From contig JBHLME010000077.1 of NCBI GenBank assembly GCA_048938445.1, positions 1-21,440 of the forward strand: DNA of 21,440 nt. Reading direction: 5' to 3'. Numbering within the stretch: the first letter of the stretch is position 1; each line of letters starts with the position of its first letter. The translations under genes were made by a program, and so were the position numbers. Of this stretch, positions 12,874 through 21,440 are shown piece by piece. Source of the DNA: Promethearchaeota archaeon (GTDB lineage Archaea; Asgardarchaeota; Lokiarchaeia; Sigyniarchaeales; SOKP01). The notes beneath the pieces were generated by a model, which saw only the letters and a list, made by a program, of their open reading frames with translations, was not told the origin of the DNA and ran no database searches.

Positions 12874-13395
12874 ATGGTGCAATTTAAAAAAGTAAAATTA
12901 GATGCTATAGATAGGCAGATTATAAGCTTAATTCAAAAAAATCCAAACATGACACACAGTGAAATAGCAGAGAAAGTAAACAGGTCACAACCTACAATTG
13001 GAGGTCGCTTGAAAAAATTATTGGATTCTGGGATTTTAAAAATACAAGCGGGGGTTAATTTCCAGACAGCTGATATTTTCTTAGCTTTTGTATATCTTAA
13101 GACAGATTCTCCAGATGAAATCATGAACATGGCAAGTCATTGTCCTTTCATGATGAACGCATATAAAAGTTCAGGTGAATTTAATATTATTTTATTATTA
13201 GCAAGTCCAAAATTAGAAAAACTTGATGGTTTAGTAAATTCTCACTTTAGAAATAAATCTGAAATATATAGTGTGAAAATGGAAATAATTTTGGATATAG
13301 CAAAAGAATTTATTCTCCCGATTAATTTAGAATTGCAGGAGGAATTAGATCCTGGTAGTGGAGAATGTGCATATTGTAAAAAATTCATAGTTTGA
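12874..13395 (+). CDS. Lrp/AsnC family regulator, Cys-bearing (1)
   Basis: LDAIDRQIISLIQ...THSEIAEKVNRSQPTIGGRLKKL HTH; RAM domain with CPF and SGEFN; C-terminal CAYC. Confidence 0.88.
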   Translation: MVQFKKVKLDAIDRQIISLIQKNPNMTHSEIAEKVNRSQPTIGGRLKKLLDSGILKIQAGVNFQTADIFLAFVYLKTDSPDEIMNMASHCPFMMNAYKSSGEFNIILLLASPKLEKLDGLVNSHFRNKSEIYSVKMEIILDIAKEFILPINLELQEELDPGSGECAYCKKFIV

Positions 13396-13457: not shown

Positions 13458-14015
13458 GTGATTATAATGATTAGTAATAAGTTAAAACTAGATGAAATAG
13501 ACAGGCAAATAATATCAATAGTTCAAGAAGAGCCTAATATGACCCATACCGAGATAGCAGAGAGAATAAATCGTTCTCAACCCACCGTAGGTCATCGCAT
13601 TAAGAAACTTGAGAAATCAGGAATATTGCAATTCCAACCAGGTATTAATTTCAGGATGGTTGATTTATATTTAGCGACAGTAGAAATAAATACAAAGGAA
13701 CCTGATAGACTCATGGAGATGGCTCAATATTGCCCTTTCATGGTGAATGCCTTCCGCGTGAGTGGAGATCATAACGTTTGCATAATGTTAACTAGCTCAA
13801 AAATAAATAAACTCGATGCAATTATTAATTATCATTTTCGGAACAAACCAGAAGTTCAAGAGGTTTCAATGGAAATTGTTACTGATATCGCGAAAGATTT
13901 GATATTGCCTATTGATTTTGATTCAGAACACCACGAGCCTAATGAAGAACATGGTTGCGGAGAGAAATGTAAATATCTTAGGGCACATAAGGAAGGAAAA
14001 ACACAATTTTATTAA
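13458..14015 (+). CDS. Lrp/AsnC family regulator, Cys-bearing (2)
   Basis: LDEIDRQII...THTEIAERINRSQPTVGHRIKKL; CPF; SGDHNVC; C-terminal HHE...HGCGEKC. The start may be the ATG at 13467. Confidence 0.88.
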   Translation: MIIMISNKLKLDEIDRQIISIVQEEPNMTHTEIAERINRSQPTVGHRIKKLEKSGILQFQPGINFRMVDLYLATVEINTKEPDRLMEMAQYCPFMVNAFRVSGDHNVCIMLTSSKINKLDAIINYHFRNKPEVQEVSMEIVTDIAKDLILPIDFDSEHHEPNEEHGCGEKCKYLRAHKEGKTQFY

Positions 14016-15015: not shown

Positions 15016-15588
15016 TTATTGTTCTTCAGAGATTATCTCGTCGAATTTATATTTGGGAATGTCTTTCTTAAGATTACACCCTGGACCACAATGCCTTCCA
15101 TCGAACCTTTCTATAGCAAAATCCATAGGAACAACAAAATCGTGTATAGATTCTATGAGGATGTTCATTTTTATGTTTATCACGTTAGGATCCTTCCTGA
15201 AACATAGATCTACGAGCTTTTCGATTGTTTGTAAATCTGCGGCAGAAATAAAGCATAATAGGTTGAACTCTCCAGAGATCTTGAACGCATGATTGATAAA
15301 TGGACAGGTTTCGATTTTTTCAACAATGTCATCCACATCTTTAGTTGAGATGTATACTATTGCTACTTTAAGATCAACATGCTTTATATTAAATCCTACC
15401 TGTTTTGTCAATAAGTGTTTTCTCTCCAGCTTTATAATTCTTGCTCCTACTGCAGGTTGCGATTTATCAATCGCTTCAGCGATTTTGGAGTGTGTAATGT
15501 CTGGATCCTGCTCTATCATCTCAATAATTTGTTTATCATCGGAATCAATGCCCAAGAGCTCATCAAATAATTTTTTCTTCATGTCCAC
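15016..15588 (-). CDS. Lrp/AsnC family regulator, Cys-bearing (3)
   Basis: IDSDDKQII...THSKIAEAIDKSQPAVGARIIKL; CPF; SGEFNLLC; C-terminal HCGPGC. Confidence 0.88.
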   Translation of the reverse strand: MDMKKKLFDELLGIDSDDKQIIEMIEQDPDITHSKIAEAIDKSQPAVGARIIKLERKHLLTKQVGFNIKHVDLKVAIVYISTKDVDDIVEKIETCPFINHAFKISGEFNLLCFISAADLQTIEKLVDLCFRKDPNVINIKMNILIESIHDFVVPMDFAIERFDGRHCGPGCNLKKDIPKYKFDEIISEEQ

Positions 15589-15637: not shown

Positions 15638-15885
15638 ATTTTTTAAAGTACATAATAGTTGGTAATAAGTAAATTTAATTAATATGTTATAATTTATAAA
15701 AGACGCCAATTTTTAGAATAGTATTGCATTCAAGATTTCTGATATCTTTTCAGTGTATTCTTTAATATCTCATACTTTAAACTCACTTATCTTGAGAAAT
15801 TATTCTTCCAATACGTCTTTAATTTGTAAATTTTTAAAATAATTTATCTTTGGAGCAATTGCAACTAATATTTATTGTTTTAACC
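15638..15885. repeat. Diverged ~250-bp direct repeat, copy A (of 16671-16919)
   Basis: Colinear at an offset of ~1033 nt. Shared blocks include ATAATAGTTG, CGCCAATTTTTAGAATAGT, TTGCATTCAAGATTT, ACTCACTTATC and ATCTTTGGAGC. Confidence 0.92.
15713..15880 (-). pseudogene. Degenerate copy of the 3' end of the REC-longin response regulator
   Basis: Manual translation gives KQ*ILVAIAPKINYFKNLQIKDVLEE*FLKISEFKV*DIKEYTEKISEILNAILF*, against KQYMLAVIAPKINYFKSLQIKEVLQEAFLMISESNEWSIKEYTEKISKILNAKLF* in the intact gene. Three internal stops and no 5' part. Confidence 0.88.
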
Positions 15886-15998
15886 TTAATCGATGAAGCT
15901 TTTAGTTTCTTTCATTTGTAAAAATAAGTGATTATGAAAAAAACATATTTTAAAATATTATCCTTTATGTGGAAGATTAATTTAACAAAAAAAAATGA

Positions 15999-16556
15999 TT
16001 AAGAACTCCAGGAAAGATTTATTATTGTTTTTTCATCACCTTCCCAGGATTTCTTTAAAAATTTCGTACGGACCGTTTGATTTAGATAGGCTTCGATAAA
16101 ACTTTGAATCCATCCCGATGCTAAATAATATATTAAATCAAAATTGCTATCAAAATCTTCAAAGATAAAATTTATTTCATTTTCAGATACCAATTCACCG
16201 TACTGCTTTCCAAAGTTAAACCACAATTTAAAAAGACGGTTATATGTCTTAAGAGCTAGACTTATCCCTCGCTTTTTTATATTATCTTTATGTAAATGCT
16301 TTAAAAACTTTTTAGCATGTGTATATCCCCAATTTTTAAGATTATCTTTATTTCCCTCTGCTTCAGCTTTGGCTGTTGCGATACATATCATTTTAAATTG
16401 ATCATATGGATACCATATAGCATCAAGAATCTGCTGATCAACGATTTTTTTCTCTTCTTCTGATAGTATTTTATCATAAATCCCACTTTTATTTGCTCTA
16501 ATATTTATTATAAAATGCTTGAATAAAGCCCCTTTTATTTGTCTCATTCTAATCAA
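15999..16556 (-). CDS. Hypothetical protein, probable V4R/H-NOX-like (DUF2378-like) ligand-binding fold
   Basis: IKG.LF...I, ILDAIWYPYD, W.F.FG, ..SGWI..FIE and terminal IINLSW resemble DUF2378/V4R-type proteins. Pattern recall only. Confidence 0.5.
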   Translation of the reverse strand: MIRMRQIKGALFKHFIINIRANKSGIYDKILSEEEKKIVDQQILDAIWYPYDQFKMICIATAKAEAEGNKDNLKNWGYTHAKKFLKHLHKDNIKKRGISLALKTYNRLFKLWFNFGKQYGELVSENEINFIFEDFDSNFDLIYYLASGWIQSFIEAYLNQTVRTKFLKKSWEGDEKTIINLSWSS

Positions 16557-16670: not shown

Positions 16671-16919
16671 ATTTTGTAAAGTATATAATAGTTGATAATA
16701 AGTGGATTTAATCAATATGTTATAAATTATAAAAGTCGCCAATTTTTAGAATAGTTTTGCATTCAAGATTTTTGATATCTTTTCAGTATATTCTTTGATA
16801 CTCCATTCATTAGACTCACTTATCATAAGAAATGCTTCTTGCAATACTTCTTTAATTTGTAATGATTTAAAATAATTAATCTTTGGAGCGATCACAGCTA
16901 ACATGTATTGTTTTTGACC
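16671..16919. repeat. Diverged ~250-bp direct repeat, copy B (functional RR 3' end plus downstream intergenic)
   Basis: Aligns with 15638-15885. Confidence 0.92.
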
Positions 16920-17633
16920 AGATCTTTGATTCTCATCAGGATTCGAATCAAAATATAAAAATGCTTGCATATCAATATATTTAATGTTCAATAAGATACC
17001 CTCTGCTTTTAGAACATTTTCTTGCCCATAAATCAACACGGCAGCATTAAATAATTGAACTCCCGTTTTTTGTAAAGAGTAAGGAATTTTTTCTTTAATT
17101 GAATAAAAATCTTTCAACCTAGGACCATAAATATCATCCCAAACCATGTAGAATAAAGTGACATTTTCTTTTTCTCCATTCATTATTGACAAATCTGGAA
17201 TGATCTCATATTTTTTTAATAATTCAGAAATTTTAGCATTTATTGAATTGATATTATTACTCCTGTTAATTTTACCTTTTATACTTGCGATTAAATCATC
17301 CTCTATTATGGGTTTGGTGAGATAATCGTCAGCACCCAACATTTTACCAAAGCGAACATCCTCTATAGATGATTTTGCGGATAAGAATAAAAAGGGGATT
17401 TCAGCCCATCTGGGATCACTTGAAATTTGTTTAAAGAACTCGAAACCATTCATTTTAGGCATCATTATATCACTTATAATTATATTAGGACTAGTTTCGA
17501 GATTTACTAACAACTTAATTGCATGTTCTCCACTTTTTGCCGTTATTACTTCATATTCAAAATTCTCTAAAGTCAATTTTAAATTAAATAAAATATCTTC
17601 ATTATCATCCACGACAAGTATTAAGGGCTTCAC
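16746..17633 (-). CDS. Response regulator: REC domain plus C-terminal uDENN/longin-like domain
   Basis: Intact REC: D9-D10, phospho-acceptor D55 (ISDIMMP), S85, K107-P108. C-terminal aa ~157-295 carry FYMVWDDIYGPRL and DENQRSGQKQYMLAVI in an apparent bb-a-bbb-aa order. The REC call is near certain; the longin call is moderate. Confidence 0.85.
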   Translation of the reverse strand: MKPLILVVDDNEDILFNLKLTLENFEYEVITAKSGEHAIKLLVNLETSPNIIISDIMMPKMNGFEFFKQISSDPRWAEIPFLFLSAKSSIEDVRFGKMLGADDYLTKPIIEDDLIASIKGKINRSNNINSINAKISELLKKYEIIPDLSIMNGEKENVTLFYMVWDDIYGPRLKDFYSIKEKIPYSLQKTGVQLFNAAVLIYGQENVLKAEGILLNIKYIDMQAFLYFDSNPDENQRSGQKQYMLAVIAPKINYFKSLQIKEVLQEAFLMISESNEWSIKEYTEKISKILNAKLF

Positions 17634-17687
17634 TTTTTATAAAATCCTTTTATTTTGATATTATATATATTAATTATAGTTTTAAGT

Positions 17688-20600
17688 TTACGATCGCAAC
17701 TTTCTTGGAAGGAAAAATGAAAATGTAGAACCTTTTCCGAATTCACTATCTACAAAAATTTCTCCTTCGTGCAAATCTACTAAACTTTTTGCAATAGCTA
17801 ATCCTAAACCCGTTCCAGGAATGTCAATTACATCTTCTGTTCTAAAGAACCTTTCAAATAGCAGAGGTATATCTTTTTCGCGTATGCCTATTCCTTCATC
17901 TATAATTTGGAACAAAACTCCCTCAGTATTATCATTATTGTATTTTCCCCTATAATTATCTTTAGCTTGAATTTTAATTATTGTATTTTCTTTTGAATAT
18001 TTTATCGCATTATCAATGAAAATTCGAAAAACTTGATCAATTCTCTTCAAATCACCATAAAGAGTGATATTTTTTCCGATTTTAGTTTCAATTGTCAAAT
18101 TTTTATTTTTTATACTTTTTTGCATCATTTCCAAATTTTCTTGTACAAGTTGTGATGGATTATATTGTTTCCACTCTATTTGTAGTTTCTTCTCATCAAT
18201 TTGAGAGATCAATAATATATCTTCTACTAAATCATTAAGAAGTAATATATTGCGCGATATTCCTTCAATTAATCGATTTTCAATTTCGGGAGTAATATTT
18301 TTGTTTGATTTCTTTAAATATTCGATTGACATCATTAAAACCGTGATGGGGGTGCGAAGTTCATGAGATACAGTAGAAACAAATTTTTCTAACTTCTGTT
18401 CTGCTTTTTTTCTTTCAGTCTCATCAGTTATAAAGGCCATTGCTCCCTCGTATTGACCATTTTTATCAAAAATAGGAGTTGTTCTAATCATAGTATGGAC
18501 TTTTCTTCCTGATTTGTGGAGAAATTCAAATTCATGCTCTTCGCCGATTCCTTTCTTTCGATCTTCAATTTTTTCTTTTGTAATATCAAAATATTCATCA
18601 TCCATGAATTCAAACAGTGTTCTACCCATCATTTCTTCCACTTTATATCCTAACATTCTTGCCATACTTGGATTAACCAGTGAACTTTTTCCTTCTGAGT
18701 CAATTACCCATACCCCTTCAAGTGAATCTTCAATTAATGAACGATATTTCTCTTCAGATTCTTTCAATCTTTTTTCAGCTAATCTGATATTTGTGATATC
18801 ATGAAAGATTCCTTGTATGAGGGGGATTCCACCTATTTCAATATTTGAGGCATTTATTAGAACAGGAATAATCTTACCCGATTTAGTTATTACTTCACCC
18901 TCATCTACAACACCTTCTCCCTCTTCTACATGTTTTTTAAACATTTCTTTATGATATTGCACTCTTTCAGGGGGATGTAATTCCTTCTGATGCCTTCCAA
19001 TTATTTCATCCTTTGTACACTCTAAAAGTAATTCGGCTTGACGATTACAATTAATAATTTTTCCATTTGTCGGATCTGCCCAAAATATTGCATCTGGAGC
19101 ATTTTCAAAAGTGAGTCGAAATTTTTGCTCAGATTCTTTTAATTTTTTTTCAGCTAATTTACTTTCAGTTATATCACGTGAAATTGTGGAAATGCCAATA
19201 ATATTGTTTTCCTCATCCCTAATTGGAGATAATGCTAAAGAGACGGAAAGTCTGTTACCACCTTTAGTTACACGTATAGTTTCAAAATTTGCGATCTTTT
19301 CCCCATTTTTTACTATTTCCATTATATCTTGTAATTCAGGATATAATTCAACAGGAATAATCATTTCTATAGAGCATCCAATTGCTTCTTCTTTGGAATA
19401 CCCATACATTAATTCAGCACTCTTATTCCAGCTAGTGATGATTCCATCTAAAGTTTTTCCGATGATTGCATCGCTAGAAGAATCCACAATAGAAGCGAGT
19501 TGATTAGAAATAATTTCAGTTATTTTGCGCTCTGAGATATCAATATAGTTCTGTATGATACCAAAAAACTCACCAGAAGGAGTTTTATATGGAACGGAAT
19601 TTACTAATAATGTTAATACTTTACCATCTTTTTTCTTTAATTCAATTTCATATTCAACCATTTTTTTATTTTCTTGAATTATTTGATTCATACAACATAT
19701 ATTTGTATGGCAATATTCATGAAACATCACGTCATAGCACTTTTTTCCAATGATTTCTTCTGGTTCAACCTGAAAAAGTTGACAAAAAGTATCGTTGACT
19801 TTAACAATATCATGTTTCTCATTTATTATACGTAAAGCTAGAGATGCATCAAAAATTTGTTCAGTTTCTGAGTATGCTAATTCTAAATCCGATGCTTTTT
19901 TTTTGAGAGCTAATTCACTCTGTTTTAATTTTCTAAACATTAATTTGAAAGGTTTTTCAATACCGATTTCTATAATTGCCTTATAGGCGATAAAGAAAGC
20001 AAGGACCTTAAAAATGTGTCCAATTAAATTTTGAATATCAAATACACCAATGTATAAGGTAAACATTAATTCTGAAGCAATGGTAAAAATAATAGATAAA
20101 ATCATCAACCAAAATATAGTTAAATCAAAATTTTTCTTTAATTTAAACATTAGAAAAACAGAAACCAAAAGTATCCCATTGATGATATATTCACTGAATA
20201 TTTTAAATGGAGTTAATCCTGGAATAGGAGAATCAACATAACATTTTGGAAATAATCCTGAAAAAATTAAAAAAAGTAATATAATAGTAATTACCAAATA
20301 AATTACAAGGATTAAATTATGATTAATTTTTTTGTTAATAAAAAATAATGCAACCACAAGCGAAATTGCTTGGAGGTATCTTGCAGCGATCCAAAGAGAA
20401 GCTGGTAGATTATTCCCAAACTCAGGAAAAACACCCATCCCTGAATAAGCTAATGTATGAAGTATATCAATCACTCCAACATAAAGATATGAAACACCTA
20501 TAATGAAAAAAAATGAGCTTTCCGTATATTTACGAGATGTCCATCCAATAATGAAAATCCCCCCCGCTATAATAATGCTAAAAATTTCTGCTATTGAATG

Positions 20601-20747
20601 AAAGAGCAAGTAATTTTCATTTCCACGGCTTTGGTCAATGTATCTTAATAATACAATAAGTAAAATACAAATAATTATAATAAAATAATCAAAATAACGA
20701 GAGATAAACTTTTTAATGCTTAATCTTTTTTTATATTCTTTAAGCAT
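17688..20747 (-). CDS. Sensor histidine kinase: MASE3 membrane domain, four PAS domains, HisKA and HATPase_c
   Basis: MASE3 signature YLLFHSIAEIFSI and DILHTLAY.GM; four PAS/PAC repeats; H-box VSHELRTP; N-box DNAIKYS; G1 DEGIGI; F-box FERFFR; G2 GTGLGL. Confidence 0.93.
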   Translation of the reverse strand: MLKEYKKRLSIKKFISRYFDYFIIIICILLIVLLRYIDQSRGNENYLLFHSIAEIFSIIIAGGIFIIGWTSRKYTESSFFFIIGVSYLYVGVIDILHTLAYSGMGVFPEFGNNLPASLWIAARYLQAISLVVALFFINKKINHNLILVIYLVITIILLFLIFSGLFPKCYVDSPIPGLTPFKIFSEYIINGILLVSVFLMFKLKKNFDLTIFWLMILSIIFTIASELMFTLYIGVFDIQNLIGHIFKVLAFFIAYKAIIEIGIEKPFKLMFRKLKQSELALKKKASDLELAYSETEQIFDASLALRIINEKHDIVKVNDTFCQLFQVEPEEIIGKKCYDVMFHEYCHTNICCMNQIIQENKKMVEYEIELKKKDGKVLTLLVNSVPYKTPSGEFFGIIQNYIDISERKITEIISNQLASIVDSSSDAIIGKTLDGIITSWNKSAELMYGYSKEEAIGCSIEMIIPVELYPELQDIMEIVKNGEKIANFETIRVTKGGNRLSVSLALSPIRDEENNIIGISTISRDITESKLAEKKLKESEQKFRLTFENAPDAIFWADPTNGKIINCNRQAELLLECTKDEIIGRHQKELHPPERVQYHKEMFKKHVEEGEGVVDEGEVITKSGKIIPVLINASNIEIGGIPLIQGIFHDITNIRLAEKRLKESEEKYRSLIEDSLEGVWVIDSEGKSSLVNPSMARMLGYKVEEMMGRTLFEFMDDEYFDITKEKIEDRKKGIGEEHEFEFLHKSGRKVHTMIRTTPIFDKNGQYEGAMAFITDETERKKAEQKLEKFVSTVSHELRTPITVLMMSIEYLKKSNKNITPEIENRLIEGISRNILLLNDLVEDILLISQIDEKKLQIEWKQYNPSQLVQENLEMMQKSIKNKNLTIETKIGKNITLYGDLKRIDQVFRIFIDNAIKYSKENTIIKIQAKDNYRGKYNNDNTEGVLFQIIDEGIGIREKDIPLLFERFFRTEDVIDIPGTGLGLAIAKSLVDLHEGEIFVDSEFGKGSTFSFFLPRKLRS

Positions 20748-20785
20748 AATATCTTCTATAAGAAGAATTAATTTAAATTATATGT

Positions 20786-21337
20786 TCAAAGAAGACTAGT
20801 TTTTTCAAAAACTGTATAAATTGAGGTTTTATGGATGGAGTAGCTTAGATTCGGAGGGAACAAACCCTTTATTTTTTCTAAAAGTTCTTTTAAAGTTTGT
20901 TTATTTATATTTTTTGAAAGTTGCTCAAGGTCGGGATCAAATTTATGCAAAAATACTGAAAACTCAATAACATTCTCATTGTCTACAGGCAATGAATTGA
21001 TTATTTTTTTTAAATAACTAACAGCAAGTTTATATCTTTTCTCATCTTGCACGTCAATTACGTAAATAAATTTATTTGTATCTCTAATATAACTATCAAA
21101 TTTCTCTAAATGATCATCTCGATATGCTTCTTGACCACCAAAATCTAAAATTACATATTCTGATCCTAATGCATGAAATGATATTGTATTATAAACCTTG
21201 GTTGGTTTTGATGAGGTAAAAGCAGTAAGATTCTTTATACCTTGTAAACTTTGAACTATACAAGTTTTACCAGCTTGATCTAATCCCATGATGAGAATTT
21301 TTTTTTTTGCAGAAGTATTATTTAATTCTTCTTTCAT
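20786..21337 (-). CDS. Small GTPase, Rag/Gtr-Arf-like, G domain only
   Basis: G1 GLDQAGKT, G2 PT, G3 DFGGQE, G4 HKFD, G5 TSIY. Confidence 0.92.
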   Translation of the reverse strand: MKEELNNTSAKKKILIMGLDQAGKTCIVQSLQGIKNLTAFTSSKPTKVYNTISFHALGSEYVILDFGGQEAYRDDHLEKFDSYIRDTNKFIYVIDVQDEKRYKLAVSYLKKIINSLPVDNENVIEFSVFLHKFDPDLEQLSKNINKQTLKELLEKIKGLFPPNLSYSIHKTSIYTVFEKTSLL

Positions 21338-21440
21338 ATGTATGATAACTCGGGTTAAGTATATTTTAAATTAATGTGTCATAAACATCCAAATCTCTTA
21401 AGTCTTTAACTTTTTGATTATTTATTTTTGCTACATAAGA

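Follow-up and report, generated by a model that had tools for sequence, protein, structure and literature searches.

Can a prokaryotic two-component phosphorelay act on a Rag/Arf-like small GTPase? The question is raised by one end of contig JBHLME010000077.1 (GenBank assembly GCA_048938445.1) of a Promethearchaeota archaeon, of which a stretch of 21,440 nucleotides (hereafter, the window) was analyzed. A first-pass annotation, made from the letters of the window alone, had read three adjacent genes there as a sensor kinase, a response regulator with a longin output domain, and a GTPase that this regulator would switch. The locus represents a copy of an Asgard cassette of four genes that is conserved and encodes an ArsR-type winged-helix protein, a GTPase with a Rag-like G domain, a MASE3/PAS sensor kinase, and a response regulator composed of a receiver (REC) and a longin domain. 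As a system, the cassette is real, conserved, and intact, and its parts are of known kinds.

Organization of the locus

Three open reading frames (ORFs) of the same orientation occupy the minus strand at 20786–21337 (183 aa), 17688–20747 (1019 aa), and 16746–17633 (295 aa). The GTPase gene is separated from the kinase gene by 38 nt (20748–20785), and the kinase gene from that of the regulator by 54 nt (17634–17687), so that the arrangement described earlier, including both gap lengths, agreed exactly with the ORF list. The G+C content of the window is ∼30%, and close relatives of its proteins are labeled Promethearchaeota (Loki-type Asgard). The features of the cassette are as follows:

21366..21440, minus strand: 3′ end (24 codons and stop) of an ArsR-family winged-helix gene, truncated by the contig end
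20786..21337, minus strand: small GTPase with a Rag/Arf-like G domain, 183 aa (Pfam Arf, Gtr1_RagA)
17688..20747, minus strand: MASE3-4xPAS-HisKA-HATPase_c sensor histidine kinase, 1019 aa (Pfam)
16746..17633, minus strand: response regulator, 295 aa
17280..17621, minus strand: REC domain of the response regulator, residues 5–118 (Pfam Response_reg, 1.2e-24)
16761..17159, minus strand: predicted longin domain of the response regulator, residues 159–291 (AlphaFold2 [AF2] model and fold matches)

The phosphorelay proteins are intact

In the kinase, Pfam recognized MASE3 (4.3e-77), four PAS stretches, HisKA (1.3e-12), and HATPase_c (6.1e-25); the NCBIfam family NF047874 (MASE3_PAS_HK) matched at 1.6e-133, which is below the family cut-off. 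Eight hydrophobic segments lie within residues 19–259. The features that define a two-component kinase are all present, that is, His795 within the H-box SHELRTP, the N box DNAIKY, the G1 box DEGIGI, and the G2 box GTGLGL, and all 60 complete MASE3 kinases retained an intact H-box. Among these orthologues, the lengths of which range from 594 to 1019 aa (median ∼750), the kinase of the window with its four PAS stretches is the longest; the number of PAS domains varied, and MASE3 and the kinase core were constant.

The regulator was assigned a single Pfam domain, REC (residues 5–118). It contains the residues by which a two-component receiver is recognized, namely, the acidic pocket D9/D10, the phospho-acceptor D55, S85, and K107, with D55 and K107 invariant in 30 cassette orthologues. 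The domain calls of the first-pass annotation for GTPase, kinase, and receiver were borne out by these and the Pfam matches given below, and the kinase histidine, Asp55, and the G3 glutamine of the GTPase, which it had described as intact, were read directly from the translations.

The output domain of the regulator is a predicted longin domain

The C-terminal 170 residues of the regulator matched no Pfam or NCBIfam family, and a sequence search of the PDB with the whole regulator returned receivers only. In the AF2 model, the receiver is followed by a long helix (residues ∼111–141) and a low-confidence linker. As the full-length model matched receiver domains only when used in a fold search, the C-terminal domain was searched alone, with an AF2 model derived from 19 relatives (predicted local distance difference test [pLDDT], 85.5; predicted template modeling score [pTM], 0.80). 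After two linker helices, this domain was modeled as β-β-α-β-β-β-α-α, which is the longin order. Foldseek ranked, among PDB entries, the GATOR1 chain 9o5d_D first (2.6e-5), followed by the Loki Roadblock-Longin protein 8yqg_B (5.7e-5) and the SEA-complex chain 8adl_S (7.2e-5); further matches, ranging to 1.8e-3, comprised DENND10 (3.7e-4) and chains of the GATOR1-Rag complex (7t3b_B) and of the active FLCN complex (8dhb_J). Structure matches are cited by chain here, and a chain letter is not to be taken as a checked subunit identity. According to its title, at least, 8yqg represents a Loki longin domain able to dimerize.

Comparison with 48,161 representative chains by VIA-align gave a Z-score of 12.0 (root-mean-square deviation, 2.7; 130 aligned) for 6nzd_H of the folliculin complex, 11.1 for 8yqg_B, 10.2 for the Lst4 longin, and 10.1 for C9orf72-SMCR8 (7o2w_A). 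Longin domains of guanine nucleotide exchange factors (GEFs) were also on the list, with DENND1A at 9.3, TRAPP subunits at ∼9–9.8, and Mon1-Ccz1 at 7.7–7.9. Roadblock proteins (MglB, LAMTOR, Loki roadblocks) were found at 7.4–8.3, near the background best score, the two extremes being MglB structures (8.3 and 7.4). A roadblock reading of the output domain was ruled out on account of these scores, compared with 9–12 for longins, and of the presence of both C-terminal helices. The longin order, together with the best fold matches to chains of GTPase-activating protein (GAP) complexes, upholds the longin call of the first-pass annotation; judged by the model, the output domain is a longin fold of the class found in GTPase-activating complexes.

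The β1–β2 hairpin of the model (strands 159–166 and 170–178) carries a WDxxxGP stretch (W165-D-D-I-Y-G170-P171), and R237 is located in the β4–β5 loop. W165, D167, G170, P171, and R237 were invariant in 30 cassette-linked orthologues, and G170-P171 was so in all three regulator alignments, which means that the regulator bears the GP motif of GAP-type longins. As put forward in the accessible text of a recent study (Traffic 2025; PMC12290439), this motif starts the second strand in C9orf72 (G38-P39) and SMCR8 (G68-P69), as well as in FLCN and NPRL2, neighbors the arginine finger of SMCR8 (R147), and does not occur in longins that are not GAPs (TRAPP, adaptin, DENND); in C9orf72, W33-D34 is described there as essential. 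When the profile of the domain was compared with PDB sequences, C9orf72 was the only match, with an E value (0.064) not significant alone; the alignment extended over 134 residues and placed WDxxxGP on WDNILGP.

The GTPase is Rag-like in its G domain

Pfam matched the GTPase to Arf (2.8e-18) slightly better than to Gtr1_RagA (5.7e-17), and no MglA entry was found among the listed Pfam and PDB matches, which were to Arf, Rag, SRPRB, and Ras. Its closest solved relatives in a PDB sequence search were 8yl2 (3e-19) and 8zla/9m28 (4.7e-18), which are titled Lokiarchaeota RagA-like/Rag-like GTPases (LokiRagO, 8yl2; LokiRagM, 9m28); eukaryotic RagC and Arl3 came next at ∼1e-8. The motifs of a G domain are all in place (G1, GLDQAGKT; switch I, P45-T46; G3, DFGGQ69; G4, HKFD at 131–134; G5, KTSIY), and among the columns that do not vary in 30 orthologues are the P-loop, P45-T46, D65, G68-Q69, H131-K132-x-D134, and T171. 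An HKxD G4 box marks Rag proteins, and the HK(F/I)D version of it, as well as a YVIDxQD stretch, was common to the GTPase and both Loki Rag alignments. The protein stops ∼10 residues after G5 (orthologues have 178–199 aa) and contains no hydrophobic segment; the C-terminal roadblock domain of Rag/Gtr proteins is missing. The designation Rag/Arf-like, as proposed earlier, thus applies to the G domain but does not extend to the C-terminal part of Rag. Because it consists of a G domain only, the GTPase is referred to as Rag-like in its G domain and was not assigned to the Rag/Gtr family.

An ArsR-like gene precedes the GTPase gene

The absence of a DNA-binding output, also asserted in the first-pass annotation, is correct for the three proteins named there but not for the cassette. 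The minus-strand frame at 21366–21440 encodes a C-terminus of 24 residues, followed by a stop codon, which matches the tail of an ArsR-like ORF of ∼112 aa in relatives. It ends 28 nt before the start of the GTPase gene, and the cassette seemed to be devoid of a DNA-binding component because the end of the contig at position 21440 truncates this gene. In 54 of the 58 related loci with room for it, the ArsR-like ORF was found directly upstream of the GTPase gene and co-oriented with it (median gap, 38 nt); in a 55th, L116, it was masked by an over-long ORF call. The same gene preceded that of the GTPase in 53 of 65 GTPase-centered metagenome loci. The ORF matched Pfam HTH_5 with 2.1e-13 (L047) and 1.1e-13 (L087). 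A role in metal sensing, as for ArsR, is unlikely, as 48 of 53 orthologues are free of cysteine. The tight coupling to the GTPase gene suggests that the winged-helix protein may autoregulate the cassette or read out the state of the GTPase.

Conservation of the gene linkage

Recurrence of the gene order in other Asgard genomes had been set beforehand as a check on the proposed system. Of 400 genomes of the phylum, 143 contain the longin domain; a single family accounts for most (117 of 134), and the frames nearly always have ∼300 codons. Among 1.84 billion representative proteins, 154 matched the domain at E ≤ 0.001. A regulator-centered set of 80 loci with 10-kb flanks was evaluated. Longin was fused to REC in 79 of them (the exception being L096), the kinase gene lay directly upstream of the regulator gene in 71, and 60 of 62 uncut kinases contained MASE3. 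In the 59 loci in which the sequence extended 700 nt or more beyond the kinase gene on its upstream side, the GTPase gene was co-oriented upstream in 53, divergent in two, convergent after the regulator in two, and absent in two. The latter two loci (L059 and L073) have non-MASE3 kinases, and larger GTPases are encoded nearby in L059. In all loci with a MASE3 kinase and sufficient room (57 of 57), the GTPase gene was adjacent, although the orthologues are only ∼45–54% identical. The predicted recurrence of the synteny was, thus, found.

The reverse view was taken with a GTPase-centered set of 80 metagenome loci. Of 64 loci in which 500 nt or more remained downstream, 41 had a kinase gene next to the GTPase gene, and the gene after the kinase coded for REC and longin wherever it was visible (19 of 19). 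In a FastTree phylogeny of 141 GTPases, from which one ORF of fewer than 150 codons was left out, the GTPase of the window belonged to a clade of 101 rows (Shimodaira–Hasegawa-like support, 96), 94 of which adjoin a two-component pair; seven could not be judged, and none was unlinked.

Several loci depart from the common layout. L096 (8816–10498) codes for a PAS-longin protein of 560 aa without a receiver. In L102 (1504–4337), the GTPase gene is followed by two tandem REC-longin genes, with no kinase gene. L059 and L095 encode non-MASE3 hybrid kinases together with REC-longin and have larger Rag-like GTPases (318–386 aa) nearby. The full cassette, in which a MASE3 ORF and a separate PAS-kinase ORF take the place of a single kinase gene, was found in L083 on a contig labeled Candidatus Nanopelagicaceae bacterium (an actinobacterial metagenome-assembled genome); this label likely results from mis-binning.

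Predicted contact between longin domain and GTPase

A complex was predicted from two copies of the longin domain (residues 150–295), the GTPase, GTP, and Mg, with a 30-row alignment for each protein. The score was 0.63 (0.63, 0.60, and 0.63 in the individual runs), compared with 0.00 for the best control; the runs agreed in at least 53% of the contacts, and the pLDDT of the partner was at least 74. On the side of the longin domain, the predicted interface comprises residues 165–172 (the WD...GP hairpin), 192–207, and 237–238, and on the side of the GTPase, residues 20–21 (P-loop), 43–50 (switch I), and 69–75 (switch II, including Q69). R237 was placed within it, beside residue 45 of switch I. 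A contact between regulator and GTPase, as envisaged in the first-pass annotation, is therefore what the prediction yields, and the predicted geometry, with the GP loop and R237 facing P-loop, switch I, and switch II, is the one expected of a longin GAP.

A proposed phosphorylation-controlled GAP and its alternatives

From the composition of the cassette and the predicted contact, we infer a scheme in which the longin domain would act in the GAP direction, phosphorylation would control it, and the winged-helix protein would have a part in the output. A signal sensed at the membrane or by PAS domains (MASE3/PAS) would set the autophosphorylation of His795, from where the phosphoryl group would move to Asp55 of the receiver, a transfer suggested by the adjacency of the two genes, the kinase gene being directly upstream in 71 of 80 loci. 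Phosphorylation of Asp55 would alter the exposure, or availability, of the longin domain or its dimer state. The WDxxxGP loop and Arg237 could then dock on P-loop, switch I, and switch II of the GTPase and stimulate GTP hydrolysis, in the manner of FLCN, NPRL2, and SMCR8, and a readout of the resulting nucleotide state would follow, for which the winged-helix protein encoded upstream is a possible candidate. That a signal travels via the phosphorylated histidine and aspartate to GAP action of the longin domain on the co-encoded GTPase is a proposition for which we see the chances as evenly balanced.

A number of observations weigh against this scheme. Longin domains more often serve as platforms for GEFs than as GAPs. 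In the nonsignificant alignment with C9orf72 (E 0.064), R237 is opposite an asparagine, C9orf72 being the subunit that does not provide the finger; the equivalence of R237 to eukaryotic arginine fingers, for which its invariance and its place in the predicted interface would speak, is putative. As for the complex prediction, its score lies at a mark that 58 of 80 solved complexes attained, as did 2 of 110 mismatched pairs; these counts apply only roughly here because own alignments and a riding ligand were used. Because complexes of GATOR1 with Rag, of FLCN with Rag, and of C9orf72-SMCR8 with Arf1 have been solved, passing this mark may also reflect likeness to them and not binding. Only one of the two longin copies contributes to the listed interface, and the GTPase was the only partner scored. 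The counts of linkage represent loci and not independent events, because the genomes are kin and the locus sets share identical contigs. In the GTPase-centered set, 23 of the 64 loci lacked an adjacent kinase gene; these have GTPases of lower similarity, and the kinase-regulator pair was divergent in some (L175, L185, L189), whereas others had no two-component genes in view. Two sister clades of GTPases (15 and 16 rows) contain a mixture of linked and unlinked rows. The scheme as a whole, finally, is a prediction derived from sequence and models.

The genome from which the window stems also contains parts of the cassette in isolation, and this, too, counts against a fixed unit. Two additional ArsR-GTPase pairs have no two-component genes within ∼5 kb, and two additional REC-longin genes have no GTPase gene adjacent to them:

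contig C104 (L205 8614–9539): ArsR-GTPase pair, the ORF coordinates of which adjoin
contig C115 (L206 2408–3316): ArsR-GTPase pair
contig C247 (L006 8276–10803): REC-longin gene with a PAS-only kinase
contig C46 (L007 1845–2735): REC-longin gene on a short contig

With the cassette included, there are three ArsR-GTPase pairs and three REC-longin genes, which fits two tight pairs that are usually joined and able to work apart; pairs and regulators may belong together as matched sets that act in trans. The complete chain, from the kinase via a receiver-gated longin GAP and the Rag-like GTPase to a cysteine-free transcription factor of the ArsR type, self-contained and with matched sets of which some would act in trans, is for now a tentative and rather doubtful proposal.

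The longin domain might bind the GTPase in a capacity other than that of a GAP, that is, as an exchange factor, as an effector specific for one nucleotide state, or as a scaffold, with phosphorylation controlling its recruitment. The longins of Mon1-Ccz1, TRAPP, and DENN proteins have such roles, and one is currently under debate for RomR-RomX and MglA. We consider this unlikely, because the invariant GP motif, which is accompanied here by an arginine in the predicted interface, is specific to GAP longins according to the accessible text of PMC12290439, and because the best fold matches were to chains of GAP complexes. It does draw on the same linkage and predicted contact with the switch regions, which would fit any switch-binding partner, on the presence of the GEF longins of DENND1A, TRAPP, and Mon1-Ccz1 in the VIA-align list, and on RomRX, which is reported, in the part of the source available (Nat Commun 2026), to be an effector of MglA-GTP rather than a GEF.

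Alternatively, ArsR-GTPase and kinase-REC-longin could be two separate modules that lie side by side, in which case the longin domain would act on another GTPase or on a target that is not a GTPase, and the GTPase would mainly partner the winged-helix protein. The isolated ArsR-GTPase pairs, the kinase-REC-longin pairs without a GTPase gene (L059, L073, and contig C247), the 15 matches to Rag-like GTPases in the genome of the window, and the tight spacing between ArsR-like and GTPase genes (median, 38 nt) would all be accounted for. This reading is quite unlikely in view of the adjacency to every MASE3 kinase, which has been maintained at ∼45% identity and through divergent and convergent rearrangements, of a GTPase clade without a single unlinked row, and of a complex prediction that passes with its controls at zero.

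A reversal of the order, with the GTPase (perhaps together with the winged-helix protein) as an upstream co-sensor modulating the kinase, and REC-longin as a phosphorylation-dependent feedback brake, we deem highly improbable: gene order and conserved linkage leave the direction of information flow unfixed, but a receiver with an output domain usually ends a phosphorelay, and it is this output domain that the predicted contact joins to the GTPase. That the genes are neighbors by chance and functionally unrelated is contradicted by the recurrence of the cassette in dozens of diverged genomes and metagenome contigs, and can be dismissed for practical purposes.

Surroundings of the cassette

At 15716–15910 on the minus strand, ∼840 nt downstream of the intact regulator gene, the window contains a decayed copy of the 3′ end of that gene, which shares 62% identity with the ∼65 C-terminal residues of the longin domain and is interrupted by one TGA and three TAA stops. 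This fragment near the intact gene suggests a past duplication or rearrangement at the junction. Between the two, 189 nt 3′ of the regulator gene and on the same strand, lies an ORF of 185 aa (15999–16556). It was dropped as a candidate for an additional gene of the cassette, having no Pfam or NCBIfam match and no homologue in 80 related loci, and it is either lineage-specific or not a gene.

Three paralogues of the Lrp/AsnC family are encoded in the window (12874–13395 and 13458–14015 on the plus strand; 15016–15588 on the minus strand), and homologues of them are present in 55 related loci. In L047 and L087, the Lrp/AsnC genes lie upstream of the ArsR-like gene, but they are downstream of the regulator gene in the window; the conserved neighborhood has, therefore, been rearranged in this genome. 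Many loci contain a gene for a second PAS histidine kinase (∼546–551 or ∼954 aa) 2–6 kb 3′ of the regulator gene, for example, L047 (14926–16575) and L087 (14580–17444); it is absent from the equivalent position in the window.

Relation to known systems

The cassette of ArsR-like, GTPase, MASE3 kinase, and REC-longin genes was not found described in the full-text literature, a search that extended to neither subscription-only papers nor supplements. To call it a candidate new system, as was done in the first-pass annotation, is nevertheless an overstatement, because both fusions of longin with two-component domains and Asgard longins with a GP motif have been published. Liu et al (bioRxiv 10.1101/2020.10.19.343400, Fig 5c) reported, in the portion of the work available, that NPRL2-like longin domains of Asgard archaea are fused to two-component domains, and proposed that growth regulation in Asgard archaea centers on such systems, which would replace regulation of the mTORC1 type. 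In Loki- and Thor-type Asgard archaea, these fusions place a longin of the GAP type on a two-component domain of the prokaryotic kind, and the regulator resembles them in this. Compared with the passages that name the fusions, the cassette adds the linked GTPase, the MASE3 kinase, the ArsR-like gene, and the GP/Arg motif, of which Fig 5c or the supplements may hold more. The accessible text of the Traffic 2025 article (PMC12290439) describes GP/WD motifs in some Asgard longins, suggests that these longins might act as GAPs on the Rag or ArfR GTPases of Asgard archaea, and poses the identity of their client GTPases as a question.

In Asgard genomes, small GTPases number in the dozens, and so do longin or roadblock proteins. 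In Tran et al (2024; PMC10933270), as far as its accessible text goes, the layout of the genome rarely helps to assign regulators to GTPases, and in strain MK-D1 the GTPase genes do not, as a rule, share an operon with genes for roadblock or longin proteins. In contrast to the MK-D1 layout, the pairing of GTPase and longin is conserved in the cassette. The part available of the classification of Asgard GTPases by Vargova et al (bioRxiv 2024) makes no mention of gene neighborhoods. For one family, the cassette offers an answer: one GP-motif longin is paired with one Rag-like G domain, and this pairing is conserved. What makes the cassette valuable is that it names a cognate longin-GTPase pair, together with an input that can be controlled, and not that its principle would be new. 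The input (phosphorylation of Asp55) can be controlled chemically, a candidate output (the winged-helix protein) is supplied along with it, and all three soluble proteins are small. Whether GATOR1, folliculin, and C9orf72-SMCR8 rely on a GAP mechanism older than eukaryotes, and by what means it was controlled, is a long-standing question that thereby becomes directly testable. Were the complete chain, up to the transcription factor, to hold true, a small GTPase would provide a step that links a two-component system to transcription, making the cassette a living model of a pre-eukaryotic Rag/GATOR/folliculin switch.

With the eukaryotic GAP pairs GATOR1 (NPRL2-NPRL3), FLCN-FNIP, and C9orf72-SMCR8, the regulator has the predicted longin fold, the GP motif, a conserved arginine, and a likely client of the Rag/Arf type in common, and the W-D-x-x-x-G-P spacing is identical to that of C9orf72. 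In human nutrient signaling, longin domains of this type turn such GTPases off. Unlike in these pairs, a single longin is fused to a receiver, with neither a DENN domain nor the C-terminal domain specific to NPRL2, there is no second longin subunit in the cassette, and the client lacks a roadblock domain; His-Asp control and GAP activity are putative. The known GTPases closest to that of the cassette are LokiRagO (8yl2) and LokiRagM (9m28), along with the Rag-like class of Tran et al (2024). From the two Loki proteins, which have 342 and 385 residues and a C-terminal domain of the roadblock type (Z 7.8–8.1), the GTPase differs in that it ends at residue 183.

In Myxococcus xanthus, the MglA polarity module is under the Frz chemosensory phosphorelay. 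As described in the source text available, this module comprises the GTPase MglA, the roadblock GAP MglB, and the receiver protein RomR with RomX. Similar to the cassette, it is a prokaryotic small-GTPase switch with a GAP of the roadblock/longin superfamily and receiver proteins fed by His-Asp signaling. The cassette, on the other hand, has a Rag/Arf-like GTPase and a GP-motif longin that is fused to the receiver, whereas the MglA system, to the extent that these descriptions cover it, has a roadblock GAP, a separate receiver, neither a MASE3 kinase nor an ArsR-like gene, a bacterial lineage, and cell polarity as its output. By analogy, MglA/MglB/RomR would be the nearest functional counterpart among prokaryotes of an Asgard cassette that was not classified as a member of that system.

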